A stretch of DNA of 64,000 bases from an uncultured Acidobacteriota bacterium (GTDB lineage Bacteria; Acidobacteriota; JAQAZP01). Made by a program: the position numbers and the translations under genes. The first letter of the stretch is position 1; each line of letters opens with the position of its first letter. The stretch spans positions 1,568,001 through 1,632,000 of the forward strand of contig CAWIIB010000001.1 of NCBI GenBank assembly GCA_963836075.1. The letters are read 5' to 3'. Shown here piece by piece: positions 3,501-62,560 of the stretch. The notes under the pieces were generated by a model that saw only the letters and a list, made by a program, of their open reading frames with translations, was not told the DNA's origin and made no database searches.

Positions 3501-4330
3501 GCGAGGTTCCTGCCTACTACCAGGAAGAGTACGGGTTCAATGCCCCGACTTACGAAGACCATACCGGCGGCTTGCCCTTCCCCCTCACCGAATACAAGGT
3601 GATGGCCCACACCGACGACCACTGGGTCTTCTGGGAATCGGATGTCAGGAGCGGCTGCTCGGTGGACAACCTGGCTCCGGGGGCGCCATTGACCCTGCTC
3701 GGCCTACCTGATGAAGCGGATGTCGTGCTCACCTGGGAGGCCAGCGGCCATGACGACGAGGACCTGGCCCACTACAACGTCTACCGCGGAACAACGCCCG
3801 GGTTCAGCCCAGACCCGGATACGCTGATCGGCACGACCATTGACATCGAGTTCACCGACCCATCCCCGGGTTCGGGGACCTTCTACTACGTGGTGGCCGG
3901 TGAGGACGTGCACGGCAACGTGGGCACCCCGTCCAACGAGGCAGCGGTTCCACTGTCCACATCAACGGTGGCCGCGGCCCTGGCCTGTTCCCCGTCCTCG
4001 GGAGTCCTGCCTTTTGTCTGCGGATTCAATGTGGAACTGACCAACCAGTACCAGGGACAGATCCGCCGCATCGTCGGCCGGATCAATGTCACCCTGGCCA
4101 ATGGAACATCCTATGGCAACTGGCGGGCGGGCAGTACCAATGTTTCACCTGGCAGCACCTATGTCACCCAGTGGAACCAGCCGATCCCGGCACTGGCTCC
4201 CCTGGTGGGCGACAACCTGTTCCGGCTGGTGGTTGCGGATGTTACACCGGCGCCCTACAACCAGCCGCCCTATCCCCCGGCCGGGGATACGGATTCCGAT
4301 ACGGCCACGGTTACCGGCATTGCGCCGTAA
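599..4330 (+). CDS. Secreted double beta-propeller protein (16 DGxGGAIIxW...DIYAQR repeats) with FN3-like domain and C-terminal module A
   Basis: ATG at 599 with GGAGG at 587-591. Signal peptide MKASYRHLLILVAFFMLIP...QA. 2x8 repeats of ~55 aa, an FN3-like DNLAPGAP...YNVYRG...YYVVAGED segment, and the shared CTD at 3962-4330. Confidence 0.9.
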   Translation: MKASYRHLLILVAFFMLIPSTSQPSQAAWSTNPSENTPVCTLSENQDAPQMVSDGAGGMIIVWRDVRYSGWSFVYAQRLDASGEEVWQANGISVCPYEHNQHAPMLISDGDGGAVITWLDYRSGSTEIYAQRLDSDGNQLWPLDGVAVCGIDGSSWEPEIASDGAGGAIICWMDSRPGSHWDIYAQRIDGSGSVAWTIDGIPVCNAAYNQLDPRVISDGAGGAFFSWQDPRSGVDDDIYCQRIDSSGTALWTANGEAVCLLSGHQQYTSLASDDNGGVYIGWRDQFSGDPDIYVQRLDGSGAPLWPIDGLPVCTAAGDQDWVALEADGTGGVFVAWDDERASSFDNNIYAQRLDGSGTALWTADGIAVCTATNNQTVPRITGDRAGGALLVWLDYRTSSSYDLYAQRIDQWGFLLWEENGVAVGAATSNQLDPVLLADGNGGMFVAWEDDRPGTDYDVYAQHIDFHGRRAGAAWSVDPGENNPACLATYYQHEAEAVSDGEGGVIAIWRDIRDFTTSEVYVQRMDSRGSQLWTMDGVLVTTGSGGKFDSVLASDGQGGALIAWKDGRSGIEFDIYAQRVDATGTALWTTHGVAVCTTVENADYICITDDGAGGAIISWHDFRNGSHTDVYCQHLDASGTPLWTANGVLVCGAAGHQTLAQCVTDGSGGAIISWADARDSLPSDTYTQRIDFLGSPLWTTNGIQVFTDSGAPRMISDGAGGAIITNRSGSSPDYDIAAQKVNASGNLTWPGTVVCDDTDSQFNPKLVSDGLGGAIIAWEDFRNSEQYDIYAQHISTNGDTHWSSIGIPICTHSASQYEPTVASDGAGGAIIAWEDYRSGLIRNIYAQHVDDSGATTWPYSGLAIGTAAGDKYGPQVVSDGRGGAIAVWVDGRVSSNDIYAQRVGRHGELGDGTPAIKNVIDHPDDQGGVTIVSWERSPHDEFPHQRITHYTVWSRLPEDADRAGWTWVGEVPAYYQEEYGFNAPTYEDHTGGLPFPLTEYKVMAHTDDHWVFWESDVRSGCSVDNLAPGAPLTLLGLPDEADVVLTWEASGHDDEDLAHYNVYRGTTPGFSPDPDTLIGTTIDIEFTDPSPGSGTFYYVVAGEDVHGNVGTPSNEAAVPLSTSTVAAALACSPSSGVLPFVCGFNVELTNQYQGQIRRIVGRINVTLANGTSYGNWRAGSTNVSPGSTYVTQWNQPIPALAPLVGDNLFRLVVADVTPAPYNQPPYPPAGDTDSDTATVTGIAP
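3962..4330 (+). repeat. C-terminal module A, copy 1
   Basis: 122-aa terminal domain that aligns with the C-termini of the genes ending at 8092, 11544 and 62560. Confidence 0.9.
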
Positions 4331-4348
4331 ACTTCTGGAGGCAGCGTC

Positions 4349-7300
4349 ATGAAGGCATTGCGCAATTGTTTCATGTTTCTCGTGTTGTCAATCATTATCG
4401 TTGCCTTCTCCTGGCAACCAACTTTTGCCGCCTGGTCCACCAACCCCTCGGAGAACACCGTGGTCTCCGGTGGTGTGTACAACCAGGATGATCCGCAGAT
4501 CGTCAGCGACGGCGCCGGCGGGTCGATCATCGCCTGGCGTCATGTCCGGTCCATTGCCGGCACCGAGACCGACATCTTTGTTCAGCGTCTCGATGCCGAA
4601 GGCAACGAGCTCTGGATCGCCAACGGGACGGCGGTCTGCAGGGCAACTGGAAACCAGACCGCACCAGTCCTGGTGGGTGACGGCACCGGCGGGGCAGTGA
4701 TCACCTGGCTCGACTACCGTTCCGGATCCACCGAGATCTATGCCCAGCGGGTGGACAGCAGCGGCGACAAGCTCTGGGCCACGGACGGCGTATCGATATG
4801 CAGCAGCCCCACCGGCAACCCCTGGGAGCCGGAGATCGCCACGGACGGCGCCGGCGGAGCGATCATCGCCTGGATGGAGGGCCGTACCGGGTCCCAGTGG
4901 GACATTTACGCCCAGCGGGTGGACAGTTCAGGGAGCACGCTCTGGACCACCGACGGCGTGGCGGTCTGCACGGCGGCAGACAGCCAGCTCGGCGTGGTGG
5001 TGGTCGGTGATGGTGCCGGCGGAGCTATTCTAGGGTGGGGTGACCTGCGTGACGGTGACTTTTACGATGTCTATCTTCAGCAGGTGGACCCTTCGGGCAG
5101 CATGCTCTGGACAGCCAACGGAATCTCCATGGGCGCCTTGTCGGAGAATGAGTTATCCCCCGACCTGATGGGTGACAGTGCTGGTGGAGTATTTGTTTCC
5201 TGGCCCGACGAAAGATCCGGAGAGAAAGATATCTATGCCCAGCGGGTTGACGGGAACGGCAATCAACTGTGGACCGTCGGCGGTGAACCGGTCTGCAGCG
5301 CATCCAATGAGCAGACCGATCCCCGCCTGGCCGGTGACGGCTCGGGCGGAGCGATCGTGGTCTGGCAGGACTGGCGAGCAGGGACCAACAGTGACCTCTA
5401 TGCCCAGCGAGTTGACATGGACGGCACTGCGCTGTGGGCCACCGACGGGATCGCGATCTGTACAGCAGCAGGAGATCAGTACAGTCATCAACTGGTGAGC
5501 GACGGGGCCGGCGGAGCAGTGATCGCCTGGACAGACTTCCAGGTCGGTTACAGCCGCGACATCTACGCCCAACGCATCGATACCTGGGGCATCGTGCTAT
5601 GGCCCGACCGAGGAGTGGTCATCAGCATGGCGGCGAACGACCAGCGTGACCCGGCGCTGACAGCCGACGGTGATGGCGGCGTGTTCATCGTCTGGGACGA
5701 CATCCGTTCGGGGACCAACTATGACGTCTATGCCCAGCATGTGGACTTCAACGGTCGCCGGGCCGGAGCCGCCTGGTCCCACGACCCGAACGAGAACAAT
5801 CCGGTTTGCCTTCCCACAACAAACCAGTATAGCCCCAAAATGGTGAGCGATGAGGATGGCGGCGCCATTGTGGCCTGGTGGGAAGCTCGCAGCGGCCCTC
5901 GTGACATATACGCTCAGCGATTGGATCGCATGGGTAGTCCTCTCTGGACTGCGGATGCCGTACCTGTTTGCGTCACACCATTCCAATCGGAATATCTCAA
6001 TATTGTCGGAGACGGCGCTGGCGGGGCCATCATCACCTGGGAAGAAGACAGCTCGGGAACCGGTGCTGATATCTATGTCCAGCGGGTGGACAAATTTGGG
6101 GTTACGCAATGGACCACCAACGGGATCGCCGTCTGTTCGCTAGCGGATGATCAGACGCGGCCATCGATCACCAGCGATGGAGCAGGAGGAGCGATCATCG
6201 CCTGGACTGACCAACGGTCCGGGACCGGGTATGACATCTACGCCCAGCGGGTGAGCGCCTCCGGCACTCCGCTCTGGACTGCTGGCGGTCTGGCGGTCTG
6301 CACGGAATCCGCTGACCAGTGGGGCTCGACGCTGGCCAGTGACGGGGCAGGTGGGGCGATCATCGCCTGGATCGATGACCGTCTTACTGCTTACACATTA
6401 TATGCCCAGCGGTTGGATAGCGCAGGTACGGCACTCTGGTCTCTTGACGGCAGGACAGTAAGTTCCCCTGTCTTCAATGTGAATGAATACGACCTGGTGA
6501 GCGACGGCAATGGTGGGATTATTGCCGCCTGGTCGGAGGATCTGGGTGGCGACACAGAGATTGTGACCCAACGATTGGACAGTTCAGGTAACCAGGAGTG
6601 GGGTTTTGACGGAGTGCAGCTAACCGAGATGACCGGGCCCCAGGATCGACCCCGGCTGCTTGCTGGCGATGCCGGTGGAGCGATCATCACCTGGCTGGAC
6701 GCTCGCTCAATGTCGCAATACGAAGTGTATGCGCAACGCATATCTCCTGCCGGGATCCTGGACTGGGCCACCAACGGCGTGGCCATCACTCCGGCCATGG
6801 GTGCGTCAGGCGTTGAGATCGTGAGTGATGGCGCTGATGGGGCTGTCATTTCCTACCGATACTCACATTCCGGAGGTGCCCCCAACATCTACAACCAGCG
6901 GGTGAGTGGAACCGGCAGCATTTCCTGGGATGTAAATGGCATGCCGATTTGCACGGCCACCGACTATCAGGATTCGCATCAAATAATTCTCACCACCGAG
7001 AACAAAGTCATCGTCAGTTGGGGTGACCAGCGATCAGGCGAAAGTAAAATCTATGCACAGCAGGCAGACCTGAACGGCTACCTCGGCGACCCCGAGCCCA
7101 CAGTGAGCACCGTCATCGACCACCCCGAAGACCAGGGTGGCGTCACCGTGCTCAGTTGGGAACCGAGCCCCCATGACGAGTTCCTATCCCAGGTAGTGAC
7201 ACACTACTCGGTCTGGAAGCGCCTTCCCGATGATCCGGATCGTGCCGGCTGGACGTTGATGAATACCGTAGTGGCCACCTACCAGTCCGAGTACGGCTTC

Positions 7301-8092
7301 GACGCCGCGACCTACGAAGACTACACCGGCGGCCCCGACTTCCCGCTCACCGAATACAAGGTCATCGCCCACACCTCCGATCCCTGGGTCTTCTGGGAGT
7401 CGGGCGTCAGGCGCGGCTGTTCGATGGACAACCTGGCCCCGGGAGCACCGTTGACCCTGCTCGGCCTGCCGGATGAATCAGACGTGCTGCTCACCTGGGA
7501 AGCCAGCGGCGATGACGATGAGGACCTGGCCCACTACAACGTATACCGTGGCACAACGCCAGGATTCGCCGTGGACGAAAACTCGCTGATCGGCACGGTC
7601 ACCGACATCGAATACACCGACCCCAACCCGGGTTACGGCACCTGGTACTACCGGGTGGCCGGCGAGGACGTGCACGGCAACGTGGGCACAGCGTCCAACG
7701 AGGCTGCGGTGCCACTCTCCACCTCGACGGTGGCGGCATCGCTGACCTGCACCCCGCCGGCGGGCGTCCTGCCCTTTGTCTCCCAGATGAGGGTTGAGCT
7801 GACCAACCAGTACACGGGCCTGACCCGCCGCATCGCCGGTCGGATCAACGTCACCCTGGCCAGCGGCAAGTATTACCCCAACTGGCGGGCCGGTTCCACC
7901 AATGTCCAGCCCGGCAGCACTTATGTCACCAGCTGGAACCAGCCGATCCCGGCCCTGGCCCCCCTGGTGGGTGACAACCAGTTCCGGCTGGTGGCCGCGG
8001 ATGTGACACCGGCGCCCTACAACCAGCCGCCCTATCCGCCGGCCGGGGATACGGACTCGGCGACGGTCACAGTTACCGGCATGGCGCCATAG
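4349..8092 (+). CDS. Tandem paralog: secreted double beta-propeller protein with FN3-like domain and C-terminal module A
   Basis: GGAGG upstream and a signal peptide. Same 16-repeat architecture as 599..4330, colinear along its full length. Confidence 0.9.
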   Translation: MKALRNCFMFLVLSIIIVAFSWQPTFAAWSTNPSENTVVSGGVYNQDDPQIVSDGAGGSIIAWRHVRSIAGTETDIFVQRLDAEGNELWIANGTAVCRATGNQTAPVLVGDGTGGAVITWLDYRSGSTEIYAQRVDSSGDKLWATDGVSICSSPTGNPWEPEIATDGAGGAIIAWMEGRTGSQWDIYAQRVDSSGSTLWTTDGVAVCTAADSQLGVVVVGDGAGGAILGWGDLRDGDFYDVYLQQVDPSGSMLWTANGISMGALSENELSPDLMGDSAGGVFVSWPDERSGEKDIYAQRVDGNGNQLWTVGGEPVCSASNEQTDPRLAGDGSGGAIVVWQDWRAGTNSDLYAQRVDMDGTALWATDGIAICTAAGDQYSHQLVSDGAGGAVIAWTDFQVGYSRDIYAQRIDTWGIVLWPDRGVVISMAANDQRDPALTADGDGGVFIVWDDIRSGTNYDVYAQHVDFNGRRAGAAWSHDPNENNPVCLPTTNQYSPKMVSDEDGGAIVAWWEARSGPRDIYAQRLDRMGSPLWTADAVPVCVTPFQSEYLNIVGDGAGGAIITWEEDSSGTGADIYVQRVDKFGVTQWTTNGIAVCSLADDQTRPSITSDGAGGAIIAWTDQRSGTGYDIYAQRVSASGTPLWTAGGLAVCTESADQWGSTLASDGAGGAIIAWIDDRLTAYTLYAQRLDSAGTALWSLDGRTVSSPVFNVNEYDLVSDGNGGIIAAWSEDLGGDTEIVTQRLDSSGNQEWGFDGVQLTEMTGPQDRPRLLAGDAGGAIITWLDARSMSQYEVYAQRISPAGILDWATNGVAITPAMGASGVEIVSDGADGAVISYRYSHSGGAPNIYNQRVSGTGSISWDVNGMPICTATDYQDSHQIILTTENKVIVSWGDQRSGESKIYAQQADLNGYLGDPEPTVSTVIDHPEDQGGVTVLSWEPSPHDEFLSQVVTHYSVWKRLPDDPDRAGWTLMNTVVATYQSEYGFDAATYEDYTGGPDFPLTEYKVIAHTSDPWVFWESGVRRGCSMDNLAPGAPLTLLGLPDESDVLLTWEASGDDDEDLAHYNVYRGTTPGFAVDENSLIGTVTDIEYTDPNPGYGTWYYRVAGEDVHGNVGTASNEAAVPLSTSTVAASLTCTPPAGVLPFVSQMRVELTNQYTGLTRRIAGRINVTLASGKYYPNWRAGSTNVQPGSTYVTSWNQPIPALAPLVGDNQFRLVAADVTPAPYNQPPYPPAGDTDSATVTVTGMAP
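7724..8092 (+). repeat. C-terminal module A, copy 2
   Basis: 7743-8043 matches 11195-11495 with 9 mismatches in 301 nt (hand count). Confidence 0.92.
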
Positions 8093-8403
8093 CGCTCAGG
8101 AAAAATCCTCACGACGGGCGGGCCGAAGGCCAACGGCGGCGTATTTTAAGCCCGCCCTGCCCTTCTCCGGTTCGTAAGAAAAATTCAAGGAGGGGCAACA
8201 TGTCATCACCTCGGAATAGCTGCTTCATTCTTGCAGCCGGCATCAATAAATTCACCCCTCACATCCAATGTGTTCACCAGCGGACGTTCCTGATGAAGAA
8301 CGGGCAATCCGTTCCATTGGTATTTTCTTGCGGCCATCTCGAGTCCACCCCTGAACATCAGATGCGGTGGGTTTTGTATCTCATCTGAATGGAGGAAAGA
8401 AAA

Positions 8404-11400
8404 ATGTGGAACACCATTCGATTATCACTGTTTGCATCAGGGCTTTTGTTCTTTCTGGCATTCTTTTCTCCGGCGGGATGGGGCGCTGAAGATCTGTGGT
8501 CCGACGTGGTGAGTGGGGTTGTGACACCCTCCCTCACCGCGGGCGAGGCGGGATTGACGGTGCTGGACGTGACCGAGGAACAGAGAAGGTCCGCACTTTC
8601 CCGAGGAGCCGGTGATCAGTATTTTCTCTCCATGGCTGGATGGGACGACGGGAGTGAATACGGTTACGCCGTCGAGCCCACCTCGGACGGCGGATTCATC
8701 GCGGCCGGCCGGACCAACAGCCTTGGCGGTGGGTTTTACGATGTGCTGCTGGTGAAATATGACAGTTCGGGAGCGCTGGAATGGGCCAGAGCGGCGGGGG
8801 GTGCATCAACCGAAGCCGCCAACGATGTCATCGAAACCGCGGATGGCGGATATCTGGTTGCCGGCATCACCGTCAGTTTCGGAGCCGGGGGACAGGATGT
8901 CCTGATGCTCAAGTTTGACAGCTCCGGGACGCTGCAGTGGTCCCGCACCGCCGGGGGAACAGGTCATGACAGTGGCCTCTCAATGGACCGTACCCTGGAT
9001 GACTGCTTCATCATCGCCGGCTACACCGGCAGTTTCGGTGCGGGCGACGATGATGTGCTCCTGCTCAAGTATGACGATGCCGGGACCCTGCTCTGGGCGC
9101 GGACTTACGGAGGGGCTGACGAGGACAAGGGGAACGCCGTCTGCACCGTGAACGATGGCGGCTATATCATCGCCGGGGAGACCAACAGCTTCGGCGTGGT
9201 GGAGTCTGATGCCCTGGTGCTCAAGCTTGACAGTGCCGGCACCCTGGCCTGGGCCTACACTGCCGGCGGATCGCCGTGGTCGGAGCGGGCATTCGGTGTT
9301 TGCCAGACCACCGAGAACCTCGTCATCGTCACCGGGTATGCCAACAGTTTCGGCGCCGGTGACCTGGATATCTTCACCATGGTATTCGATATTTACGGCG
9401 TGTCCGGTCCCATGCGGACCGTTGGCGGACCGGAGTCCGAGCGGGGCTACAGTGTCCGCCCCACCATCGACGGCGGCTTCGTTGTGGCCGGGTACACCGA
9501 GAATTATGGCGCCGGTGAGGATGATTGGCTGGTGCTGAAGTTTGACAAGTTCGATTCGATGGAGTGGGCGAGGACCGTTGGCGGCGACGGCTTTGATTTC
9601 CTCCACGATATCGCGCCGCAGGAAGATGGCGGCTATCTCATGGCCGGGTACAGCACCAGCTTTGGCGCGCTGGGCTGGGATCTTCTGGTGGCTCGGACGG
9701 ACGCCCGGGGGATGATCCATGGCTGTCCGCACATCGCCCTCTGTAATCCCGAAGTGAACAACTATCTCCCCACGATTCTTTCTCCGGCGGTCACCGTGGG
9801 CACACCGGCCCTGACCACCGGATCGCCCTCGGTGACGGTAGTGGCGCAAGTGCCCGATAAAACGGGGATTTGCAGTTTCACTTACCCCTATCCGGAATAC
9901 GCCATGCTGGCCACCGGCGGCGCCTTGAACGACACCAGTGTGTCTGTCCGCGATACCCCGGATGGCGGCCTCCTGGTGGCCGGAGCCACCAACGGGTATG
10001 GCGTGGGCGGTTTTGATATCCTGCTGATCAAATACGACAGTTCGGGACTGCTCCAGTGGGCCCGGACCGCGGGTGGAGTGGATGACGAGATGGCCTGGGA
10101 CATGGAACTGACCTCGGACGGCGGCTGTATCGTATCCGGATACACCTACAGCTACGGTGTGGGCAACGGATACCGCGACGCACTGATCGTCAGGTTCGAC
10201 CACGCGGGAAACCTGCTCTGGGCCCGCACGGCAGGGGGCACCTACTGGGAAGATGCCTACGATGTGTGCGAAACCTCGGACGGCGGCTTCATTGTCACGG
10301 GAGAAACCGGGAGCGTCGGGCCGGGTTACGACCACGACGTGATGCTGCTCAAATATGACAGCGGCGGCACTCTGGAATGGGCACGTACGGCCGGCGGCGA
10401 TAAAGATGACGAAGGGAAATCGGTATGCGAGACGCCCTTTGGGGAATACGTGGTCACCGGATTCAGCCAGAGCTTCAACACCTCCAACGACTTTGACATC
10501 ATCCTCTTCAGGTTCACCGGCAGCGGTTCGCTCGTGTGGACCCGCGTGGTGGGGGGCGATTCCTGGGACTGGGGGAACAGCGTCCAGATGACCGATGACT
10601 ACGACATCGTCATAGCAGGATACAGCAGCGGCTATGGCGAGGGCGGATCGGCCCTGCTGGTCAAGTTCAGTATGCTCGGAAACATGTATTGGGCCCGGGC
10701 CGCGGGTGGGGCCTCATTTGAGGAGGCGCACGCCATGGACATGACGTCTGACGGCGGATTCGTGGTGACCGGCCGGACCAGCAGTTTCGGTCCCGGAACA
10801 CCCGACGCGATCAACCTCTTCCTCTGGAAATTCGGCTATGGTGGTACTCTGGAATGGGCCAGGGCGGCCGGTGGTGACGGGGAGGAGAACGGCCTCTCGG
10901 TGAAGGAGACCGCTGACGGCGGGTTTGCGGCAAGCGGCTTCACCCTGAACAGTTATGGCGCCGGACAGTATGATGCGTTCCTCCTTCGCACCGATGCATC
11001 GGGCCTGATCGACAACTGCCCGAATCTGGTCCCGTGCAGCCCGGTGGTGGATGTGGTTGACCCCGCCGTCCAGGAACCCTCGCTCAGCGAGCAGATCCCT
11101 TCATTCACCTACACCAGCCCCAATCTGTACACCGGGAGCGCTTCCCCGAACAATGAGGCCGTCTGCCCTGTTGATTCGACCGTTGCGGCGGAGATGACCT
11201 GCACCCCGCCGGCGGGCGTCCTGCCCTTCGTCTCCCAGATGAGGGTTGAGCTGACCAACCAGTACACGGGCCTGACCCGCCGGGTCGCCGGACGGATCAA
11301 CGTCACCCTGGCCAGCGGCAAGTATTACCCCAACTGGCGGGCCGGTTCCACCAATGTCCAGCCCGGCAGCACCTACGTCACCAGCTGGAACCAGCCGATC

Positions 11401-11544
11401 CCGGCCCTGGCTCCCCTGGTGGGTGAGAACCTGTTCCGGCTGGTGGCCGCGGATGTGACACCGGCGCCCTACAACCAGCCGCCCTATCCGCCGGCAGGGG
11501 ACACCGACACGGACACGGAGACGGTTACCGGTCTTGCGCCGTGA
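8404..11544 (+). CDS. Secreted double beta-propeller protein (14 TxDGG(Y/F)IxAGxTxSFGAG repeats) with C-terminal module A
   Basis: GGAGG at 8391-8395 favours ATG 8404. Signal peptide, 2x7 repeats separated by a Cys/Pro/Thr-rich linker, and the shared CTD. The repeat type differs from the two upstream genes. Confidence 0.9.
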   Translation: MWNTIRLSLFASGLLFFLAFFSPAGWGAEDLWSDVVSGVVTPSLTAGEAGLTVLDVTEEQRRSALSRGAGDQYFLSMAGWDDGSEYGYAVEPTSDGGFIAAGRTNSLGGGFYDVLLVKYDSSGALEWARAAGGASTEAANDVIETADGGYLVAGITVSFGAGGQDVLMLKFDSSGTLQWSRTAGGTGHDSGLSMDRTLDDCFIIAGYTGSFGAGDDDVLLLKYDDAGTLLWARTYGGADEDKGNAVCTVNDGGYIIAGETNSFGVVESDALVLKLDSAGTLAWAYTAGGSPWSERAFGVCQTTENLVIVTGYANSFGAGDLDIFTMVFDIYGVSGPMRTVGGPESERGYSVRPTIDGGFVVAGYTENYGAGEDDWLVLKFDKFDSMEWARTVGGDGFDFLHDIAPQEDGGYLMAGYSTSFGALGWDLLVARTDARGMIHGCPHIALCNPEVNNYLPTILSPAVTVGTPALTTGSPSVTVVAQVPDKTGICSFTYPYPEYAMLATGGALNDTSVSVRDTPDGGLLVAGATNGYGVGGFDILLIKYDSSGLLQWARTAGGVDDEMAWDMELTSDGGCIVSGYTYSYGVGNGYRDALIVRFDHAGNLLWARTAGGTYWEDAYDVCETSDGGFIVTGETGSVGPGYDHDVMLLKYDSGGTLEWARTAGGDKDDEGKSVCETPFGEYVVTGFSQSFNTSNDFDIILFRFTGSGSLVWTRVVGGDSWDWGNSVQMTDDYDIVIAGYSSGYGEGGSALLVKFSMLGNMYWARAAGGASFEEAHAMDMTSDGGFVVTGRTSSFGPGTPDAINLFLWKFGYGGTLEWARAAGGDGEENGLSVKETADGGFAASGFTLNSYGAGQYDAFLLRTDASGLIDNCPNLVPCSPVVDVVDPAVQEPSLSEQIPSFTYTSPNLYTGSASPNNEAVCPVDSTVAAEMTCTPPAGVLPFVSQMRVELTNQYTGLTRRVAGRINVTLASGKYYPNWRAGSTNVQPGSTYVTSWNQPIPALAPLVGENLFRLVAADVTPAPYNQPPYPPAGDTDTDTETVTGLAP
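11176..11544 (+). repeat. C-terminal module A, copy 3
   Basis: Near-identical in DNA to copy 2. Confidence 0.92.
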
Positions 11545-11553
11545 TGAGGTGAA

Positions 11554-13239
11554 CTACTGGATGTAGCCGAGGTTGCGCAGCTTTTCCATCTCCCGCTCCC
11601 GGTTGGGGTCCGGGGCATACTGTCTGGAGACGGTGCGCAGCAGCGTGGTGCGGTCGGTGCCCGAGTATTCCGGGATCATGCGGATAGGCTGTCGCTGGAG
11701 GCGCTCGGGAGTGACCGCCTCCTCCAGCACACCGCCCTGGGCCGGGGCCAGGGCCATCATCCTCCCGTCCTGGGGCAGGCCCAGCAGGTAGAGCAGGGTG
11801 GGCGCCACCTGGTAAAGGGTGGCCGGTTCGGTGAGTGTTGCCGGCTGGATGTCCTGGCCGTGGAGGATCACCACGCCCTCCAGCCGGTGGGCCCCGGAGA
11901 TGTCGCTGTGGCGCATCCGCACCTGGACGAAATCGTATCCCTCCTGCCCTTCCCACGCCTTGTCGGTAAACAGCGCCTCGGGTGAGAAGCGCACGGTGGC
12001 TGCGGGATCACCGGACTGCCAGCCGGGATCGGTGGTGTGGTTCACGACCATCTCGAACAGTGGCTGGTTCTCATCGGTGTGCAGGGTTCTCAAACGGTGA
12101 CAGATCTCTTCGGCCTGCTCCAACCCTGCCTGGTCAAGCCAGACCCGCTTGTCGTGACGATACATCTCGTCGATGGCATAGACCTCTCCCCCGCCGCCCT
12201 CCTTCATCAGCCCCAGCTCCTGCAGCAGCAGTTCCAGCCGGAAATGGTAGGCCTCGCCGGGCTGGATCGGGCCGCCGCCATGGTCGGAGACGATGACCAG
12301 GGTAACGTTTTCCGGCGCCAGTTCACGGATCTCACCGAGGAAGTGGTCCATCAGCCGGTAGTAGGCACTGATCACATTGGCCCGTGAGACATCCGGAGAG
12401 CCGTCCTGGGGGAACTGCTGGGAAGCCGGGTCCATGTGCCGCCAGGTGATGTGCTGGGCCACGTCGGTGCCGGAGAAGTAGACGGCCACAAACGGTGTTT
12501 GTTCCCCTTGGGCCACCACGCGCAGGGCGGCCATGCTGCGGGCATCGTTGACCAGCGTGTCCCGGAGAAACTTGCTCCGGGCGATCTCCTGGGCCAGTGG
12601 GCCGGGCATGCGCACCACGGCCTGGTCTTGCAGTGTGTCGGCGAACCGTTCGGGGTGCACCTGTCCCGGCTGGGGCGATTCAGGGTCGAAGCCCTTGGAG
12701 ATGTAGTAGCCGTCGATGGCCTCGGCGGGAAAGGAGCCGAACCAGTTGATCACCGTCGACCTGAGCCCGGCGGTCCCGGCCAGTTCCCAGACCGCCGGTG
12801 ACCGGCGGTCCGGCGGGCCGCTCTCCACCACGTCGTAACTGCCCGGCAGCTTGACCAGGAAGTTGAGCACCCCGTGCTGGAAGCGCGGCATGCCGGTGGC
12901 GATGGTGGCCCAGAGCGCGGGGGAGATGGTCGGCTCTTCGGAGAGCAGCGTTCCGCTGGTCCCTTCGCTGGACAACTCCGCGAAGTTGGGCAACTCTCCC
13001 CGGTCGATCATCGGCTGCAGCAGGTCCCAGGTGATGCCGTCGATGCCCACCAGCCACACCGGCCCCGAGGCGGCAGAAGACCGGACCGGACCGCCCGGCT
13101 GCAGGGGGTAGGTCATTCCGGGGAAATCAGCCAGCGTCTTCTCCGCCGGAAAGACCGGCATCTGAAAATCGTCCTCGGGCGCGGAACACCCGGCCATGGC
13201 CAGGGTGAGGATCAGGGCGATGAAGCGATGAATACGGAT
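11554..13239 (-). CDS. Alkaline-phosphatase-superfamily (nucleotide pyrophosphatase/phosphodiesterase-like) lipoprotein
   Basis: Motifs GIDGITW, PTISPALWATIATG, VIVSDHG, GAHRLEG and a C-terminal LRNLGY. Lipobox LAMAG-C. Start extended from ATG 13197 to ATC 13239, which follows AAGGAG (see findings). Confidence 0.8.
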   Translation of the reverse strand: MRIHRFIALILTLAMAGCSAPEDDFQMPVFPAEKTLADFPGMTYPLQPGGPVRSSAASGPVWLVGIDGITWDLLQPMIDRGELPNFAELSSEGTSGTLLSEEPTISPALWATIATGMPRFQHGVLNFLVKLPGSYDVVESGPPDRRSPAVWELAGTAGLRSTVINWFGSFPAEAIDGYYISKGFDPESPQPGQVHPERFADTLQDQAVVRMPGPLAQEIARSKFLRDTLVNDARSMAALRVVAQGEQTPFVAVYFSGTDVAQHITWRHMDPASQQFPQDGSPDVSRANVISAYYRLMDHFLGEIRELAPENVTLVIVSDHGGGPIQPGEAYHFRLELLLQELGLMKEGGGGEVYAIDEMYRHDKRVWLDQAGLEQAEEICHRLRTLHTDENQPLFEMVVNHTTDPGWQSGDPAATVRFSPEALFTDKAWEGQEGYDFVQVRMRHSDISGAHRLEGVVILHGQDIQPATLTEPATLYQVAPTLLYLLGLPQDGRMMALAPAQGGVLEEAVTPERLQRQPIRMIPEYSGTDRTTLLRTVSRQYAPDPNREREMEKLRNLGYIQ

Positions 13240-14498: not shown

Positions 14499-15520
14499 TC
14501 AGTAGACACCACCGGCCGCTGTCCCGCCCATCATCAACTGCAGGTCCTGGTAAGCGTCGAAGTCACAGCCGTCAAGCAGGCTCACTTCGCCGCCGTCCAC
14601 GTTCCAGACACAGACCCGGGCGCCCCGGGCGGCGTCCGGTCCGGGGATGGTGATGATTTCCTCCCGGCCGTCAAAGTCGAGGTCGGCAGTGGCCACCGAC
14701 ACACCGAACATTCCCTCCGGATAGGCGAAGAAGTTCACCGACTCCATCGGCGTCACCTGCGACCCGTCCCAGTTCCAGGCCCGCACCTGGGGGCCGAACA
14801 TCGCCCCGGGGCCCGGGCCGGTGATAATCGATTCCACCTCGTTGCCGCTCAGGTCGCCACAGGCCACGTTGACCCCGTACCTGTTTGTCCCGTAAGCCAT
14901 GAAGGAAAGCCCGGTCAGCGCTGCCACCTGGCCGGCCTCCGAATTGTAGGACCAGCCGCGCACATGGGGGCCGAACACCGCCCCCGGCCCCGCGCCGGTG
15001 ACGATCTCGTCCTGCAGGTCGCCGTTCAGGTCGCCGCAGGCCACGTTGACCCCATACTTGTTCGTCCCGTAGGCAAAAAAGCTCAGTCCGGGGAAGGGAA
15101 CCACCCCGCCAACCCTGTCGTATCGCCAGCCCCGCACGTGGGGGCCGAACACCGCCCCCGGCCCCGCGCCGGTGACGATGTCGTCATAGCTGTCGTACAC
15201 GCTGAAATCGAGGTTGCCGGCGGCCACGTTCACCCCGTACTTGTTCGTGCCGTAAGCCAGAAAGCTCAGCCCGGGCAGCGGGTCGCCCAGCGGTGTGAAC
15301 CCGCGGACGTGGGGACCGAAGACCGCGCCGGGCCCGGGACCGGTGATGATGATCGCCGTCTCACCGCCAAACAGGTCGCCCGCGGCCACGTTCACCCCGT
15401 ACGCCGCAACCCCGTAAGACATCCACTGGCGGACCGGCTGAGCGGGGGCGGCAGTGTCGTGCAGCCGGACCAGCGGCGGATTGACCACTGCCGGGCCTGG
15501 TCCGGTGACTACCACCGCTG
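14499..15520 (-). repeat. C-terminal module B (six GPGPGAVFGPHVRG FG-GAP-like repeats), copy 1
   Basis: Aligns repeat by repeat with ~27196-28200 and ~34212-35222. Confidence 0.88.
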
Positions 15521-16862
15521 TGGGGCCGCGGTCAAGGTAGGCGGTGAGGAACTCGTTCCAACCTGTATCGGTGCAGAAGTCCAGCGACGAGGTGGTGTAA
15601 CTGTCATCGTAGTAGCGGCTGTCCCCGGGAAAGTAGAGGGTCAGCCCGCCGGCCCCGGGCTGTCCGGTGCCGTGGCACTCCGCGATCACCGCCCGGTCCA
15701 TCGCCTCACCCAGGCCTCCCAGATCCTGGAGCAGCACCGGGTCGCTCTCCAGCGCGGCCAGCCGCCGGGTAAAATCGAGCAGGTCCACGTCCACCATCTG
15801 GTACCGCCCGCCCCAGCTGTCGGTGAGGAAGTGCCTCGACATCCCCCGGGCCACCGAGAGACGCTCACCGCAACTGTCCAGCCGTTCCACCAGGTGCCCG
15901 GCCAGGCTGTCCAGTCCGACGGCCACGTCACCCAGCTCGCCGGCCCGGACGGCACTCATGGTCCTGTAGCTCATGAACCAGGGATCGATTTCGTTGGCCT
16001 CCACCAGAGAGACGATAGTGGCGGCGATCTCGTCCACCGGAGGCTGAGGCGTTGTGTTGAGCAAGTGGCACATTTCGTCGATCATGCCCCGCCAGTGGAT
16101 GTAGCCGCTGACGTCCTCACTGCCGATATAGACCTCCACCCAGTCCCGCAGTTCATAAGCCGCTTCAAAGGAGCCCATGTTGCAGGGGGCGGTGAAGGCG
16201 ATGATGTCCACGCCGCCGGCCTCCTCGAAGGCCTGCTGGAACTCATCCATGGTCAGCCAGTCGAACCCGCTGCTGGTGTCGAGGCAGGCGCCGCTCCAGC
16301 TCATGCCGTGATCATAGACACCGAGAAAGTAACGATTGGCGGGGTAGTTGGTTTTGCCCCAGGCAATGAAATCCCGCAGGGTGGCAGAGTCACCCATGTT
16401 CGGCTCGCCCCAGTCCTCCAGCAGGGTCAGGCTGTGGTCGGCCTCCACGCGCCAGAGGGTGGCCGGGCCGGTTTCCAGGTCCTGCAGCACCACCACGTCG
16501 AGATGGTCGCCGGAGAATGCCTCGGCGGCGAAGTCTGCCAGTGGGGCGTAGGCGTCGGTAAAATCCGCGTCAGCATAAAAGAGGTAGGTCCAGGTCTCGC
16601 CGCCGCCGGCGGTGGCAGCGCCACTCCCCTTTGCCTCTTCCCTGCGGACTGGTGGACGGGCGGACCGGTCACCGTCGTCGCCCGAGTGATGGTCCAGCTG
16701 GCTGAAGATCCCGTCCCGTTGGGGGATCAATCCAACAACTTGTGACGGAATCTCGGTTCCCGCTGCAACAGTGGCAACCATACCGGCGAACAACATGGCA
16801 GCGATCGCCCACCTCAGCATCATGGCCGGACAATCTTCCCTCAGCGGAGATATTTTCATCAC
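14499..16862 (-). CDS. Secreted clostripain-family (C11) cysteine peptidase with C-terminal module B
   Basis: Signal peptide, WTYLFY, NMGDSATLRDFI, YPANRYFLGVYDHG (catalytic His) and FTAPCNMGSFEAAYEL (catalytic Cys), followed by six GPGP repeats. Start uncertain (16862 or 16823). Confidence 0.85.
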   Translation of the reverse strand: MMKISPLREDCPAMMLRWAIAAMLFAGMVATVAAGTEIPSQVVGLIPQRDGIFSQLDHHSGDDGDRSARPPVRREEAKGSGAATAGGGETWTYLFYADADFTDAYAPLADFAAEAFSGDHLDVVVLQDLETGPATLWRVEADHSLTLLEDWGEPNMGDSATLRDFIAWGKTNYPANRYFLGVYDHGMSWSGACLDTSSGFDWLTMDEFQQAFEEAGGVDIIAFTAPCNMGSFEAAYELRDWVEVYIGSEDVSGYIHWRGMIDEMCHLLNTTPQPPVDEIAATIVSLVEANEIDPWFMSYRTMSAVRAGELGDVAVGLDSLAGHLVERLDSCGERLSVARGMSRHFLTDSWGGRYQMVDVDLLDFTRRLAALESDPVLLQDLGGLGEAMDRAVIAECHGTGQPGAGGLTLYFPGDSRYYDDSYTTSSLDFCTDTGWNEFLTAYLDRGPTAVVVTGPGPAVVNPPLVRLHDTAAPAQPVRQWMSYGVAAYGVNVAAGDLFGGETAIIITGPGPGAVFGPHVRGFTPLGDPLPGLSFLAYGTNKYGVNVAAGNLDFSVYDSYDDIVTGAGPGAVFGPHVRGWRYDRVGGVVPFPGLSFFAYGTNKYGVNVACGDLNGDLQDEIVTGAGPGAVFGPHVRGWSYNSEAGQVAALTGLSFMAYGTNRYGVNVACGDLSGNEVESIITGPGPGAMFGPQVRAWNWDGSQVTPMESVNFFAYPEGMFGVSVATADLDFDGREEIITIPGPDAARGARVCVWNVDGGEVSLLDGCDFDAYQDLQLMMGGTAAGGVY

Positions 16863-24919: not shown

Positions 24920-24954
24920 ATGCCCGGCGCCCCGCGCGCCGGGCATTTCTTTTT
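24920..24954 (+). terminator. Rho-independent terminator
   Basis: ATGCCCGGCGC-cccgc-GCGCCGGGCAT followed by TTCTTTTT. Confidence 0.8.
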
Positions 24955-25009
24955 ACGCTACGATTGCTCAGACACGTTTAGCGGACCCACGAGCCGGAGG
25001 AACCACCTG

Positions 25010-37818: not shown

Positions 37819-37903
37819 CGGGTCTTGAATATCGGTCCGGTTGAGGGATAATGACCTCGGCAACAATCCCTGCGGCAGCCACACGATCTTTCGGAGAGGG
37901 CCG

Positions 37904-40900: not shown

Positions 40901-41176
40901 GAACGGACGGTCCAGCTTGAGGTCGGTGATGTTCTGGTGCTCTACTCCGACGGGATCCCCGAAGCCAGCGATTCCGAGCATAACCTCTACGAGCTGGAGG
41001 CCCTGAAAAAGCTGCTGGCCAACATGGATACCGGCCCCCTGCCTGCGGAGGAGATCAAGGAACGGATCCTCCGCGACGTGCTGCTCTTCACCGGCCGGGC
41101 TCCCCAGGCTGACGACATGACAGTGGTGGTGGTCAAGGTGCTGCCGGCGGGGCATTCAGATCAAGAGCGGACATAA
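37904..41176 (+). CDS. Periplasmic Reg_prop/Y_Y_Y sensor fused to a SpoIIE/PP2C phosphatase
   Basis: Repeated LWIGTxGGGLNR blades, YTTLPPGNYNFRV, a TM helix, VGGDFFD, GDVSGK, LYSDG and DDMT. Confidence 0.9.
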   Translation: MTRFILSWIILLVTFSLAGTAGAEPARAPEIEFEEISIESGLSQSIVECIIQDRRGFLWFGTEDGLNRYDGYDFTVFRNDPDDQNTLSYNHILSLCEDRRGRIWIGTFQGGLNRYDPMTRQFILYQHDPDNPSSLSNNNANRIVEGRDGLIWIGTDNGLNCFDPDTGNFTRYLSEADSPTSSGSNVIRAVHEAPSGELWVGTDGGGLGRFERNRLLFTWYRHDPSDRRSLSHDRVRAIYTDRERTLWVGTVGGGLNRFDPESDSFTRFHSQSDAHAGLSHDQVYAMHEDRNGGFWVGTNGGGLNLFDRESGVFHHYKHAPHNPTSLSYDEIYAIHEDRSGVIWLGTYGGGTNRFDRNRRKFIHHKPDPGDPNSLSADIVWAIHEDQDGILWIGTHGGGLNRLDRSTNNYRHYRHDPDDPTSISSDIVRVISADNEGTIWIGTHGGGICRFDRERGTFRSYRHDPGNPNSLSHDEIRAIYEDSAGDIWVGTNGGGLNRFDRESETFTTYRTDPDAAGSLSNDYVRVIIEDSRGVFWLGTQGGGINILDRQSGEFTHYRADQDDPTSLSNDFIFAIHEDRSGEIWIGTWGGGLCRFNRENGTFKTYTEKDGLSNNSVYGILEDEQGRLWLSTNYGLSNFDPQSETFRNYTVEDGLQSNEFNGGSFHRSANGELFFGGINGFNTFFPLKIRHNPHVPPVELTAFLKLNQRVPLEKPVGMMEELVLSHRDYVFSFEFAALDFTAPMKNRYAYMMEGLDEQWIETDASRRIATYTTLPPGNYNFRVKGSNNDGIWNEAGTSIRLTITPPFWQTWSFRVLSACALLLLIYPFFKRKVRNERMAAELQAAHAAQMSIMPHSDPVVPDLDISGITRPANEVGGDFFDYFWLDDEHQRFGIAVGDVSGKAMQAAMIAVMSSGMICSEVAGGGTAAGIMSSLNRPLFRKTSGKMFVTLLLADIDTGTRRLTFANAGFSHPLLKSGETISFLERKGPRFPLGVVEDTAYLERTVQLEVGDVLVLYSDGIPEASDSEHNLYELEALKKLLANMDTGPLPAEEIKERILRDVLLFTGRAPQADDMTVVVVKVLPAGHSDQERT

Positions 41177-50549: not shown

Positions 50550-50646
50550 TGTCCAGGTCTCCTGACGGTCTTCACCATTGGCGTTCACAAGTCCCTCAAG
50601 TGTAATGAAATCCAAGTATTCGTCAAGTGAGGAAACGTCTGCCGGC

Positions 50647-57406: not shown

Positions 57407-57411
57407 CGATC

Positions 57412-59048: not shown

Positions 59049-59334
59049 GGATCTCTTCCTCCTGAATTGATGAACCATACCGGAGAATCTATCACAGGAG
59101 GGTGAATGTGTCACAGGAGGGGGGGATGTGCAGGGGGACGCCCCCCCCGGGACTAAAGTATCTGTTGATTTAATATAAGAGGCCGGCAAGCGAACCGGGA
59201 TGGTGTGAAAAGCAGTGACACGATCCACAACAACAATAAGAGCAATAGTTTGCACTGGAGGCTCCGGCGTTCCAGTCGACTTATGCCTACAACATCGATA
59301 TACATTACAGAATTCACATACATACGAATAGCAA

Positions 59335-59363
59335 TTGACAATTACCGAAAATAAGCTTATTTA
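59335..59363 (+). promoter_or_regulatory. Sigma70-type promoter of C25 protease 1
   Basis: TTGACA-N17-TATTTA, with identical hexamers and spacing at 62830-62858. Confidence 0.7.
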
Positions 59364-59378
59364 ACATCGGTAAGATTG

Positions 59379-59452
59379 ACTGCCATGCAGGCGGTCCGGT
59401 ACTCAGGCAGCCGGCCCCCCGCGGTTTTTCCATCCCGTGCCTGAGGTGAGAG
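59379..59452 (+). promoter_or_regulatory. Conserved structured 5' leader element, copy 1
   Basis: ACTGCCATGC...CTCAGGCA...CGGTTTTTC...TGCCTGAGGTGAGAG. 59402-59409 pairs with 59438-59445. Confidence 0.5.
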
Positions 59453-59580
59453 CTTTTGTCGCCGTCGTATTCAATAAATGCCATAACAAAGAACGAGTTG
59501 TGATACCCGGGAGAACTCTGCCGCATGGCAGAACAGAGGCAGGTCCTCCCACGAACCGCAGCACCACTGGAGGAGTTTTG

Positions 59581-62560
59581 ATGAGCGCGAATCGCCCACT
59601 GACCATCATTTTTGCACTGCTGATATCGATCTGCCTGGTGAACGGCGCCACCGCCGACCAGGTGTGGGTCTCCACCGGCGCCCAGGGACAGCCGGTTTTC
59701 GGTGAGACCGGCGAAGCGGCCGGACCGCAGGTCCTGGTAACGGCATCCGACGCCTCCTCGATCCTGCTGGATGTGGACGTTCCCGGCTTCAGCATCGTGA
59801 GGCAGAAGACCAGGGGCGGCGATTTCCTCGTCCTCAACTGGCCCGACGCTGCCGCCGCCGGTGCGGTGGGCTCCCCCATGCTGCCGGTGGTCCGCGAACT
59901 GTTCCTCGCACCCCACGGGGCCGAGGTCAACGTCAGTGTCCAGGCGGGCCTGCCGCTGGTGATCGACGCCCAGGCCCTGGGCTTCGACTTCCGGGTCATG
60001 CCGCGCCAGGCGCCGGTGCCCAAGATCAAGGGCGCTTTTGCCAACGCCCCCTTCGCCTATGACGCGGCGGTCTACAGCACCGCCGGCCAGCTGCCCCTGC
60101 AGCAGGCCACGGTGACCGAGCTGGGCACCGCCCGCGGCCAGCGGCTGATGCTGCTGGAAGTCTCCCCGCTGGTCTACAACCCGGCGGCGGGACGGATCGC
60201 CTACACCCCGCAGATCAGCGTGCAGATCGACTTCCAGGGCGGCAGCACCGAAACATCCGCCCTGCGGCCCCTGCCCGGCCTGCTGGACAACGTGCTCAAC
60301 CCCGACCTGTCCGGCTACCAGCACGACGCGCTGCGCGGCACCGGCAACTACCTGGTGATCGCGGCTTCTACCCTTTCCGGCCACGCCAAGCTGACCGAGT
60401 TCGTCAATGCCAAGACCGCCCAGGGATTCACCGTCAGCACCTACAGCGTGCCGGGCGGCACCTCGAACACCGCCATCAAGTCCTACATCTCCGGTCTGTG
60501 GGGCGGCGCCAACTCGCCGGACTACATCCTGCTGGTGGGCGACAGCAACACCATCCCCGGCTGGACCGGCGGCGGCGACGGCAGCCCCTACACCGACCTG
60601 CCCTATGCCTGCATGGACGCCGGCGACGACTGGACCCCGGACATCGCCATCGGCCGTTTCCCGGCCGATGACGGCGCCGAACTGACCGTCCTCGTGGACA
60701 AGACCCTCAGCTTCGACAACGGCGTCTTTGCCGATGCCGAGTACACCGCCCGGGCCTGCTTCATGGCCTCGGTGGACAACTACACGGTGAGCGAGGGGAC
60801 CCATAACTACGTGGTGAGCAACCACATGGACCCCAACGGCATCGTCTCGGAGAAGCTCTACCAGGTGACCTACGGCGCCACCACCCAGGACGTGCGCGAC
60901 GCCTTCAACGACGGCAAACTCTACGGTTGTTACAGCGGCCACGGCGCCACCACCTACTGGGCTGACGGGCCGGAGTTCCACCAGAGCGACATCAACAACC
61001 TGAGCAACTACCAGATGTACTCCTGGGTGCTCAGCTTCGCCTGCATCACCGGCACCTACAACATCGACGAGTGCTTCATGGAGACCTGGGTCCTGGCCGC
61101 GGACAAGGGTGCGGTTGCCGCCTGGGGTTCCAGCGTCAACAGCTACTGGACCGAGGACGACGTGCTGGAGAAACGGCTCTTCGACGTGCTGTGGGATGAC
61201 GACGTGCGCGAACTGGGCCCGCTCTACAACACCACGAAGATCGTCTACGCCGGCGAGATGGGCAGCGGATCCTTCACCCGCCGCTACTTCGAGATGTACA
61301 ACCACATGGGCGACCCGGCCCTCTTCATCCCCTACGCCATCCAGACGGCGATGACGGTCACCCCCAACAGCGCCTTTGAGTCCGAAGGGCAGAGCGGTGG
61401 CCCCTTCACTCCGACCAGCAAGGTCTACACCATCGAGAACACCGGGGTCACCGGCTTCAACTACACGGTGAGCAAGACCCAGAGCTGGGTCACTCTCTCC
61501 TCCACCAGCGGCTACCTGACGGCCGGCGCCACGGCCAACATCACCGCCTCGATCAACTCCGCGGCCGACTCGCTGGCCGACGGCGGCTACACCGACACCA
61601 TCTCCTTCGTAAACACCACCAACCATGACGGCGACACTGCCCGCAGCGTCAACCTCCAGGTGGGCGTGCCGGTGATGCAGTACCGAGTGGAACATGGACA
61701 CCAACCCCGGCTGGACCACGGCCGGCCAGTGGGCCTACGGATCCCCCACCGGCGGCGGCGGTGCCTACGGCAACCCCGACCCCACCAGCGGCGCCACCGG
61801 CCCCAACGTCTACGGCTACAACCTTGCCGGCGACTACGCCAACAGCATGTCCGAGACGCACCTCACCTCCACGGCCATCGACTGCACCGACCTGGCCGAC
61901 GTCAGCCTGCGCTTCCAGCGCTACCTCAACGTGGAGACGCCGAGTTACGACCACGCCTACGTGCGGGTAAGCAACAACGGCTCCAGCTGGACCACGGTCT
62001 GGGAGAACACGTCTGAAGTGACCGACTCGTCCTGGTCCATGGTGGAGTATGACATCTCCGACGTTGCCGACGGTGAGTCCACCGTCTACCTCCGCTGGAC
62101 CATGGGCACCACCGATTCCAGCTGGACCTACAGCGGATGGAACATCGACGACGTGCAGATATACGCCCTCGGCGGCGGCACCGTGGTGCCCACCGACACC
62201 GTGGAAGTGGCCATCGGCTGCACCCCGGACAGCGGCGTGCTGCCCTTCGCCACCCAGATGGCGGTGTCGCTGAGCAACCTGACCACCGAGAACCGCCGGG
62301 CCGCCGGCCGGATCGACATGGTGATCGGCAACGGCAGCTCGTACACCAACTGGCGTGCCGGCTGGACCAATCTCAGCAGCGGCGAAGTCTACAGCAACAT
62401 GTGGACCCAGAACCTGCCGGGCCTGGCGTCCATGGTGGGCAACAACGTCTTCACCCTGACCGGTGTTGACGTGACTCCCGCTCCTTACAACCAGCCGCCC
62501 TTCGCGCCTTCCGGCGACACTCACACCGACGCCTGCACGGTGGTGGCCACGGCCCCCTGA
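59581..62560 (+). CDS. Secreted gingipain-like C25 cysteine peptidase (propeptide, C25, BACON-like, beta-sandwich, module A) with an apparent +1 frameshift at 61683-61684
   Basis: GGAGGAG RBS, signal peptide, YILLVGD, TDLPY, IGRFP, YSGHG (His), SFAC (Cys) and MGDP. Removing one C gives VPVMQYEWNMDTNPGW and a 992-aa protein. Confidence 0.88.
62195..62560 (+). repeat. C-terminal module A, copy 4 (divergent)
   Basis: GCTPDSGVLPF...NWRAGWTN...DVTPAPYNQPPFAPSGDT...ATAP. Confidence 0.9.

Follow-up and report, generated by a model that had tools for sequence, protein, structure and literature searches.

What is the use of a single C-terminal domain that is shared by otherwise unrelated secreted proteins? 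This question is raised by a stretch of 64,000 nucleotides (the window) on contig CAWIIB010000001.1 of an uncultured bacterium labelled Acidobacteriota (positions 1,568,001 to 1,632,000, forward strand), where four genes for exported proteins end in the same domain of 121 or 122 amino acids (aa), here called module A. A preliminary description of the window had noticed the four copies and had taken them for a sorting or anchoring signal. From the analysis reported here, module A is probably a lineage-specific, independently folding immunoglobulin-like (Ig-like) terminal domain on Sec-exported proteins, which would serve as a common surface-targeting tag recognised by one shared envelope partner.

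Module A copies and carrier genes in the window

The four copies of module A, their carrier genes and a fifth carrier that runs over the end of the window are given below; the E-values are those of each copy against the profile built from the four copies.

3962..4327, plus strand: module A copy 1, 122 aa, stop codon at 4328-4330, E = 4.7e-71
7724..8089, plus strand: module A copy 2, 122 aa, running to the stop codon, E = 2.5e-72
11176..11541, plus strand: module A copy 3, 122 aa, running to the stop codon, E = 6.8e-73
62195..62557, plus strand: module A copy 4, 121 aa, running to the stop codon, E = 8.2e-66
~599..4330, plus strand: carrier 1 (translation of the open reading frame, ORF), with signal peptide, DGxGG-type beta-propeller repeats, Fn3-like region and module A
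4349..8092, plus strand: carrier 2, a paralogue of carrier 1, with signal peptide and module A
8389..11544, plus strand: carrier 3, with signal peptide, delta-60/SBBP-type repeats and module A
59581..62560, plus strand: carrier 4, a C25 (gingipain-family) peptidase with propeptide, BACON-like and MAM/choice-of-anchor-J-like domains and module A
62994..64000, plus strand: N-terminal part of carrier 5, a second C25 peptidase (Propeptide_C25) whose gene exceeds the window

The alignment of the four copies was internally gapless but for one residue and contained 57 invariant columns; copies 2, 3 and 4 were 80, 79 and 52% identical to copy 1. The four-copy profile found the copies themselves at E = 7e-73 to 8e-66, and the weakest among 150 listed matches in the genome still had E = 6e-40, so that chance is excluded. 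The in-frame translations, the invariant columns and the presence of the motifs listed in the preliminary description thus bear out that four proteins of the window end in one domain.

The carriers were also found to be what they had been taken for, namely two propeller paralogues, a delta-60/SBBP protein and a C25 peptidase, with one correction: there appears to be a frameshift in the C25 gene, near 61,685-61,735. The peptidase (from 59,581) is read in one frame and the part with the MAM/choice-of-anchor-J region and module A (61,694-62,560) in another, and tblastn of an intact 983-aa homologue (P0160) aligned in two frames. Several other module A carriers across the genome also look split across frames, for which assembly errors and pseudogenes are both possible. 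Carrier 4 matched PF01364 at 8.6e-52 and also PF08126, carrier 3 matched TIGR02608 at 84 bits (cut-off 76.5 bits), and carrier 1 gave a weak match to the beta-propeller repeat TIGR04275. Judging from the signal-peptide-like sequence, carrier 1 would start at the Met preceding KASYRHLLILVAFF. The full gene of carrier 5 encodes 1279 aa and has its own module A about 2.8 kb past the end of the window (G000:C1:1634468-1634830, where G000 is the genome of the window).

Census and terminal position in the genome

All six-frame ORFs of at least 60 aa in G000, a 6.23 Mb assembly of 10 contigs, were searched with the four-copy profile. A total of 230 domain matches were found in 224 ORFs, and 189 of the matches were near-full length. 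The distance from the end of the domain to the stop codon was at most 3 aa in 178 of these and 4-10 aa in a further 8, leaving three copies that were not terminal, one of them frameshifted and two truly internal in fusion- or duplication-type proteins. The claim that the domain is almost always C-terminal therefore holds for 186 of 189 near-full copies. Nor is it limited to a few paralogues, with about 190 copies in this genome and at least 108 matches in each of two congeners. Both large contigs carry it (79 and 99 copies), and when the last 100 residues of 3844 filtered ORFs were clustered, module A formed the largest family of shared tails (154 members).

Conserved residues and the free C-terminus

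The 186 terminal copies had a median length of 122 aa; their pairwise identity, over 3000 sampled pairs, ranged from 20 to 99% with a median of 48%. Twenty-two columns were conserved in at least 90% of the copies, including the loop residues D93, T95, P98, N100, Q101, P102, P103 and G108. The C-terminal residue was Pro in 162 of the 186 copies, preceded by Ala in 111 of them. Directly upstream of the domain no conserved linker or cleavage motif was found; the four residues ahead of it are mildly enriched in Pro, Gly and Thr.

Two cysteines, Cys9 and Cys115, lie in the first and last strands of the domain. Both were present in 127 copies, neither in 27 and a single one in 32 (odds ratio 17.9, the paralogues being non-independent). 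Such co-occurrence fits a disulfide formed outside the cytoplasm, and a Cys9-Cys115 bond probably joins the first and last strands.

Proteins with two copies of module A allow the loop and the end to be told apart. Double copies were found in 8 of 150 representatives (from relatives), 7 of them in tandem, with 30-42% identity between inner and outer copy. The proline-rich loop was present in the inner and the outer copies alike. The terminal Pro (...x-A/T-P) was kept by all eight outer copies and was missing from seven of the eight inner ones, the exception being a fusion-type protein whose inner AP is retained. These data suggest that the loop is intrinsic to the domain and that the Pro would matter as a free end.

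Transfer of the module between neighbouring genes

Copies 2 and 3, which belong to unrelated neighbouring genes, were 91.9% identical in DNA sequence, and the similarity was confined to the stretch from the first codon of the domain to the stop codon. Identity between copies 1 and 2 was only 80.5%, although carriers 1 and 2 are paralogues that are still similar upstream of the domain. The sharp edges of the one identity, taken with the lower value of the other, indicate module transfer or gene conversion between neighbouring genes.

Predicted fold and comparison with known domains

Two copies searched alone (P0001 and P0004) had no match in Pfam or NCBIfam at E <= 1, and a sequence search of PDB gave a single chance match (E = 0.41). 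The domain is thus uncatalogued, as had been supposed; full-text searches, which covered result listings and the openings of abstracts, returned no description of it.

An AlphaFold2 model built with 29 paralogues predicted, with high confidence, a generic Ig-like sandwich of eight beta-strands (mean predicted local distance difference test score, pLDDT, 96.5; predicted template modelling score 0.86). Residues 94-109 of the model, the DVTPAPYNQPPYPPxGD stretch, form a non-regular segment ahead of the last strand. In the structure search the matrix protein RbmA came top (Z 11.8, root mean square deviation (rmsd) 2.7 A over 106 residues, TMq 0.72), followed by the Ig-like domain of AlkC (Z 11.0), transglutaminase C-terminal barrels, N-domains of dextranases, accessory Ig-like domains of glycoside hydrolase families GH2 and GH3, and macroglobulin (MG) domains. 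The structural comparison that had been proposed for module A thus gave the expected Ig-like sandwich, with no distinct known family among its neighbours. The CARDB structure 3idu superposed on the model with Z 10.1 and an rmsd of 2.5 A over 99 residues, a score at which dozens of unrelated Ig-like chains tie. The nearest clusters in the ESM Atlas were CARDB-like at 0.87, which is under the 0.9 mark and serves as a lead only. A two-copy complex prediction scored 0.00, with controls absent, and is evidence neither way.

Neither TIGR04183, FlgD_ig nor CARDB, the profiles with which a comparison had been suggested, matched the domain. The CARDB profile (PF07705) had no match to module A at E <= 1 and none in G000, and was positive in 4 of 14 control genomes. 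CARDB, the RbmA FnIII domains, transglutaminase barrels and MG domains resemble module A in predicted fold but are not terminal tags.

Of the known terminal tags, the type A C-terminal domain (CTD) of the type IX secretion system (T9SS; PF18962/TIGR04183) and FlgD_ig (PF13860) are close to it in kind: they too are folded beta-sandwiches, they end enzymes and adhesins that are exported by Sec, and they number tens to hundreds of copies per genome. Module A differs from the T9SS CTD in its length (122 aa versus a 72-position model), its own motifs, its Cys pair and its terminal Ala-Pro, and in its restriction to a single genus, in a phylum where T9SS tails were absent from the sampled genomes. 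TIGR04183 and PF18962 did not match the two copies or the window carriers at E <= 1, nor any of 86 members at E <= 1e-5. A search for the tail in five genomes found it in none, the controls being silent. In precomputed Pfam annotation PF18962 was seen on homologues from other phyla and never on module A proteins, while FlgD_ig did not match module A and was absent from the two mannanase-family proteins that carry it. T9SS CTDs were not seen in the top rows of the structure searches, and may share the fold all the same.

The type I dockerin (PF00404) is another C-terminal, non-catalytic module on many unrelated secreted enzymes, to which module A may be likened. Dockerins have a calcium-binding, helical fold, whereas module A is all-beta and Ig-like and has no sequence match to them; dockerins attach through one common partner, and for module A no cohesin-like partner is known. 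Pfam placed no PF00404 match on module A, and a dockerin profile of our own matched other ORFs of G000 (11 ORFs, at least 5 of them at the C-terminus) and not the carrier tails. PEP-CTERM, LPXTG and GlyGly-CTERM are likewise C-terminal tags on exported proteins, but consist of a short motif, a transmembrane helix and a basic tail. Module A ends in ...TVTG-x-AP and has no hydrophobic stretch, transmembrane helix or basic tail, and it was rightly set apart from these three systems at the outset.

Equivalent position in homologous proteins

Homologues of the passenger parts show what fills the C-terminal position where module A is missing. The 120 best homologues of the C25 passenger come, where a source is named, from Phycisphaerae and other Planctomycetota. 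Module A is the ending of 7 of them, and a dockerin-like tail was recognised in 83 (terminal in 76) by a profile built from 30 of these homologues; the precomputed Pfam lists have PF00404 in 9 of the 120. For a GH5-type mannanase passenger, 119 homologues were compared, with named sources that include Eisenbacteria, Zixibacteria, KSB1 and Latescibacterota. Module A was present in 1 of them, PF13860 in 30 and PF18962 in 7 (either or both in 33), PF00404 in 6 (19 by the self-built dockerin profile) and PF07589 (PEP-CTERM) in 2.

Module A therefore occupies the exact position that known anchoring or sorting tags take elsewhere, which is the strongest functional argument we have and is independent of sequence similarity. 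The preliminary description had placed the domain in the position of T9SS/FlgD-like CTDs; homologues do carry FlgD_ig or Por_Secre_tail there, as well as dockerin or PEP-CTERM. Directly upstream of copy 4, carrier 4 has a weak match to choice-of-anchor-J (NF038128, 26 bits, below the cut-off of 30 bits), a family presumably named for its varying anchors, and this points in the same direction.

Export and cargo of the carriers

That the carriers are exported, as had been claimed, is supported by their enrichment in signal peptides. By a crude test on ORFs of at least 300 aa, signal-peptide-like starts were found in 115 of 168 carrier ORFs versus 689 of 2456 control ORFs, and no lipobox was found among the carrier ORFs in this test. 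Database representatives gave a similar picture, with signal-peptide-like starts in 100 of 133 Met-start proteins carrying module A.

The passengers are diverse. Pfam families on 86 representatives included beta-helix, FG-GAP, subtilases (S8), M28, M14, C1 papain-like, GH5, PQQ propellers, PA14, LTD and FGE-sulfatase, and C25 is also among the carriers. Half of the representatives (43 of 86) had no Pfam family at E <= 1e-5, and none of the 86 had a family covering module A.

Distribution

The four-copy profile was positive in 3 of 41 related genomes, namely G000 and two congeners (G001 and G002), with at least 108 matches in each; the other 38, which belong to other families, gave no module A match (the tallies over the 41 relatives include one genome, G025, that is flagged as unpublished). 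A 29-copy profile run on 401 genomes of the phylum, representing 227 genera, found the same three genomes and one marginal match of 20.6 bits. Among the sampled genomes of the phylum, module A is confined to one genus.

Wider searches found it as follows. A motif scan of 185,579 species genomes yielded 133 confirmed stretches, and the 74 loci kept from them all lie in two records of metagenome-assembled genomes, named Acidobacteriota bacterium and uncultured bacterium. Of 1.84 billion representative proteins at least 500 matched at E <= 1e-3, 463 at 1e-10 and 368 at 1e-30, and a word-indexed search of 5.8 billion clusters returned 497 proteins; no source name among the 120 listed of these 497 referred to the domain.

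Search for partner machinery

T9SS core genes had been proposed as a check on the machinery, and they were not found in five genomes, the controls for this search being genomes without T9SS. Por_Secre_tail, SprA, PorV, GldM and GldN had no match in the three carrier genomes or in two others of the phylum, with no positive control, as T9SS is absent from all 14 control genomes. In the same genomes GldK gave matches at the level of FGE-sulfatases only (at most 90 bits versus a cut-off of 350 bits), and GldL was not searched. A scan of large proteins against protein families covered 13 of the 14 ORFs that reach 1500 aa, and no SprA-like or scaffoldin-like protein was among them. PEP-CTERM-like tails numbered zero among 3940 called genes of G000.

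A PorU-like C25 protein of 914 aa, with a signal peptide and without module A (L108:242-2986:-; NF033707 at 202 bits versus a cut-off of 420 bits), was considered as a sortase for the tag and dropped: an orthologue is present in G001 (65% identity), none was found in G002, and 17 relatives that lack module A have homologues at about 30% identity. The PorU-like gene lies in an operon (L111:9743-15535, minus strand; G000:C1:1026742-1032534, outside the window) that also encodes a radical-SAM/SPASM protein whose N-terminus is PqqD-like, an HprK-related-kinase-A-like protein and a small S24/S26-like peptidase; the operon resembles a cassette for peptide maturation, with an unusual protease. Of the secretins, one belongs to a PilQ-type pilus cluster and the other to a cluster like that of the type II secretion system (T2SS); the T2SS-like secretin occurs in 41 of 41 relatives and was rejected as non-specific. 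The phylum-wide T2SS-like cluster is nevertheless an available route for folded proteins across the outer membrane.

The 467 non-carrier genes lying within two genes of carriers contained no small adaptor or barrel family. Two kinds of protein recurred among them: 63 of the genome's 143 FG-GAP-tail proteins were there, and 36 of its 93 large sensor/regulator proteins; the latter have "two-component regulator propeller" and Y_Y_Y domains, with an example in the window at 37841-41176 (plus strand).

The FG-GAP-like tail is a second shared ending in this genome. This module of about 100 aa (...VRGWNYDG...DF.AY...HG..VAAG.F) ends 117 ORFs of G000 with unrelated N-termini, its hosts being a C11 clostripain-like peptidase, FG-GAP and sortilin/BNR proteins and, elsewhere, a C25 peptidase. 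The genes are interleaved with those of module A, making up 63 of the 467 neighbours of carriers. Those in the window are:

14499-16862, minus strand: ORF with FG-GAP-like tail
24920-28264, plus strand: ORF with FG-GAP-like tail
31911-35222, plus strand: ORF with FG-GAP-like tail
ending at 115, minus strand: ORF with FG-GAP-like tail

Proposed function and alternative explanations

A tag that is recognised in trans fits the evidence as a whole: the domain is strictly terminal, its Ala-Pro is specific to the free end, and its loop stays invariant on passengers that are unrelated; to this are added the signal peptides, a probable disulfide, the range of cargo and the equivalence of position with known tags. 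The carrier would be exported by way of its N-terminal signal peptide, and the tag would fold in the periplasm, probably stapled by the Cys9-Cys115 disulfide. One shared envelope partner would bind the invariant proline-rich loop (DVTPAPYNQPPYPPxGD) and the free ...x-Ala-Pro C-terminus, and would retain the protein at the cell surface or deliver it there. The domain, its position and number, its range of cargo, its equivalence with known tags and its narrow distribution are observed here; in the mechanism, what we infer is the disulfide, the surfaces of recognition, the partner and the outer-membrane route.

The preliminary description spoke of an Ig-like tag for secretion, cleavage or surface attachment. 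Of this, the shared terminal tag on exported proteins stands, and it may serve in secretion or cleavage or, alternatively, in retention or binding. Within the tag reading, retention by an anchor that is dockerin-like in function is plausible though far from assured; in its favour are the tandem copies, the equivalence with dockerins, the narrow range of genomes and the fact that no dedicated machinery was found. A true outer-membrane sorting signal, functionally like the T9SS CTD and possibly cleaved, is suggested by the end-specific terminus and the equivalence with T9SS and FlgD_ig domains, and we regard it as possible yet doubtful. More speculatively, module A could be the address tag of an undescribed, T9SS-independent pathway of surface display or secretion in this diderm lineage labelled Acidobacteriota, serving about 4-5% of the proteome, with a receptor that is possibly a lineage-expanded module; we would put this forward with considerable reserve. 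By analogy with integrin-propeller/Ig-ligand or cohesin/dockerin pairs, the FG-GAP-like terminal module might be a candidate for that receptor.

A number of observations weigh against a tag with a dedicated partner. Restriction to one genus is unusual for a sorting system, and no partner or machinery was found, the neighbours of carriers being enriched only for other families of exported proteins and regulators. The PorU-like C25 shows no co-variation with module A, and the T2SS-like secretin is not specific to carriers. The fold is generic, with 80 chains at Z >= 8 and no neighbour that stands out. About one third of the carrier ORFs had no signal peptide by the crude test, which frameshifted starts may explain in some cases. 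Recent expansion and gene conversion, instead of a shared ligand, could partly explain the similarity between copies. Besides the two internal copies in G000, 3 of 150 database representatives are non-terminal, and the internal copies together with the tandem double copies count in particular against module A being purely a signal.

Three other explanations were weighed. The domain might bind an external polymer or biofilm matrix in the manner of a carbohydrate-binding module (CBM) or of Vibrio RbmA, holding the proteins on a substrate or matrix and not on their own envelope. This we consider unlikely. Its best structural neighbour is indeed a matrix scaffold, and the accessory Ig-like domains of dextranases and GH2/GH3 enzymes come next in the structure lists, but the RbmA score is unseparated from those of many unrelated Ig-like chains and no sequence match to any carbohydrate-binding family was found. 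Tandem double copies are frequent in binding modules, and a glycan site could make good use of the invariant Trp, Arg, Asn, Tyr and Gln; the carriers, which include proteases, propellers and beta-helix proteins, have no common substrate, and neither the strict terminal position nor the end-specific Ala-Pro is expected of a CBM. At least as unlikely is a domain with a passive structural part to play (spacer, stabiliser or protease-resistant cap), spread through exported genes by recombination and having no common partner. A 16-residue loop that is invariant over 186 copies on unrelated passengers, and a terminal Pro that is kept only when the domain is terminal, both point to recognition in trans; moreover, spacers are usually internal and variable, and the position is that used by known tags in homologues. 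These points stand against the generic Ig fold, the transfer or gene conversion between neighbouring genes, the expansion within a single genus and the failure to find machinery, all of which such a domain would account for.

It is very improbable that module A is a strongly diverged true T9SS CTD served by a cryptic and equally diverged T9SS. TIGR04183/PF18962 and PF13860 never matched it; SprA, PorV, GldM and GldN had no match in G000, G001 or G002 and GldK none above the FGE-sulfatase level, in searches that had no T9SS-positive control; and none of the 13 scanned large ORFs was SprA-like. What the idea explains is the position, size class, fold class and cargo spectrum, which are like those of T9SS CTDs, and the 33 of 119 mannanase homologues with PF13860 and/or PF18962 in the same position. 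It could also call on the PorU-like C25 protein in the genome (202 bits to NF033707), but this gene was not found in G002 and is present in 17 relatives without module A. A tag recognised by a shared envelope partner is thus the reading that we retain.

Other features of the genome

Next to carrier 3, on the opposite strand, lies a gene for a type I phosphodiesterase/AlkP-family protein (11554-13197, minus strand) that ends in ...KLRNLGYIQ. A tail of the form ...LGY[IL][ED] is common to 49 ORFs of G000, and clustering placed this gene outside that family.

Two pairs of ORFs with combined domains were found on contig G000:C9, outside the window. L116:135-6677 and L117:158-6685 (both plus strand) are uninterrupted ORFs of about 2180 aa, with an AsmA/TamB-like region, five POTRA repeats and an Omp85 barrel. 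They matched the BamA model TIGR03303 at 299 and 367 bits, above its cut-off, and are apparent TamB-BamA fusions. At L127 and L129 an AcrB-type RND pump is joined in a single ORF to an ABC ATPase (1588 aa) or to a TolC-like OEP (1525 aa); these may be real fusions or the result of lost stop codons.

Implications

The way in which bacteria display enzymes and adhesins is defined by C-terminal tags (the T9SS CTD, dockerin, PEP-CTERM and LPXTG among them), and each newly recognised one has led to new machinery. In the present case, about 190 exported proteins per genome bear one and the same folded, uncatalogued domain, in an uncultured lineage without detected T9SS genes or PEP-CTERM-like tails. 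A module A profile would improve the annotation of the secretome in these organisms and would provide a handle for finding the partner. The narrow distribution limits generality but makes the origin of the tag unusually tractable.

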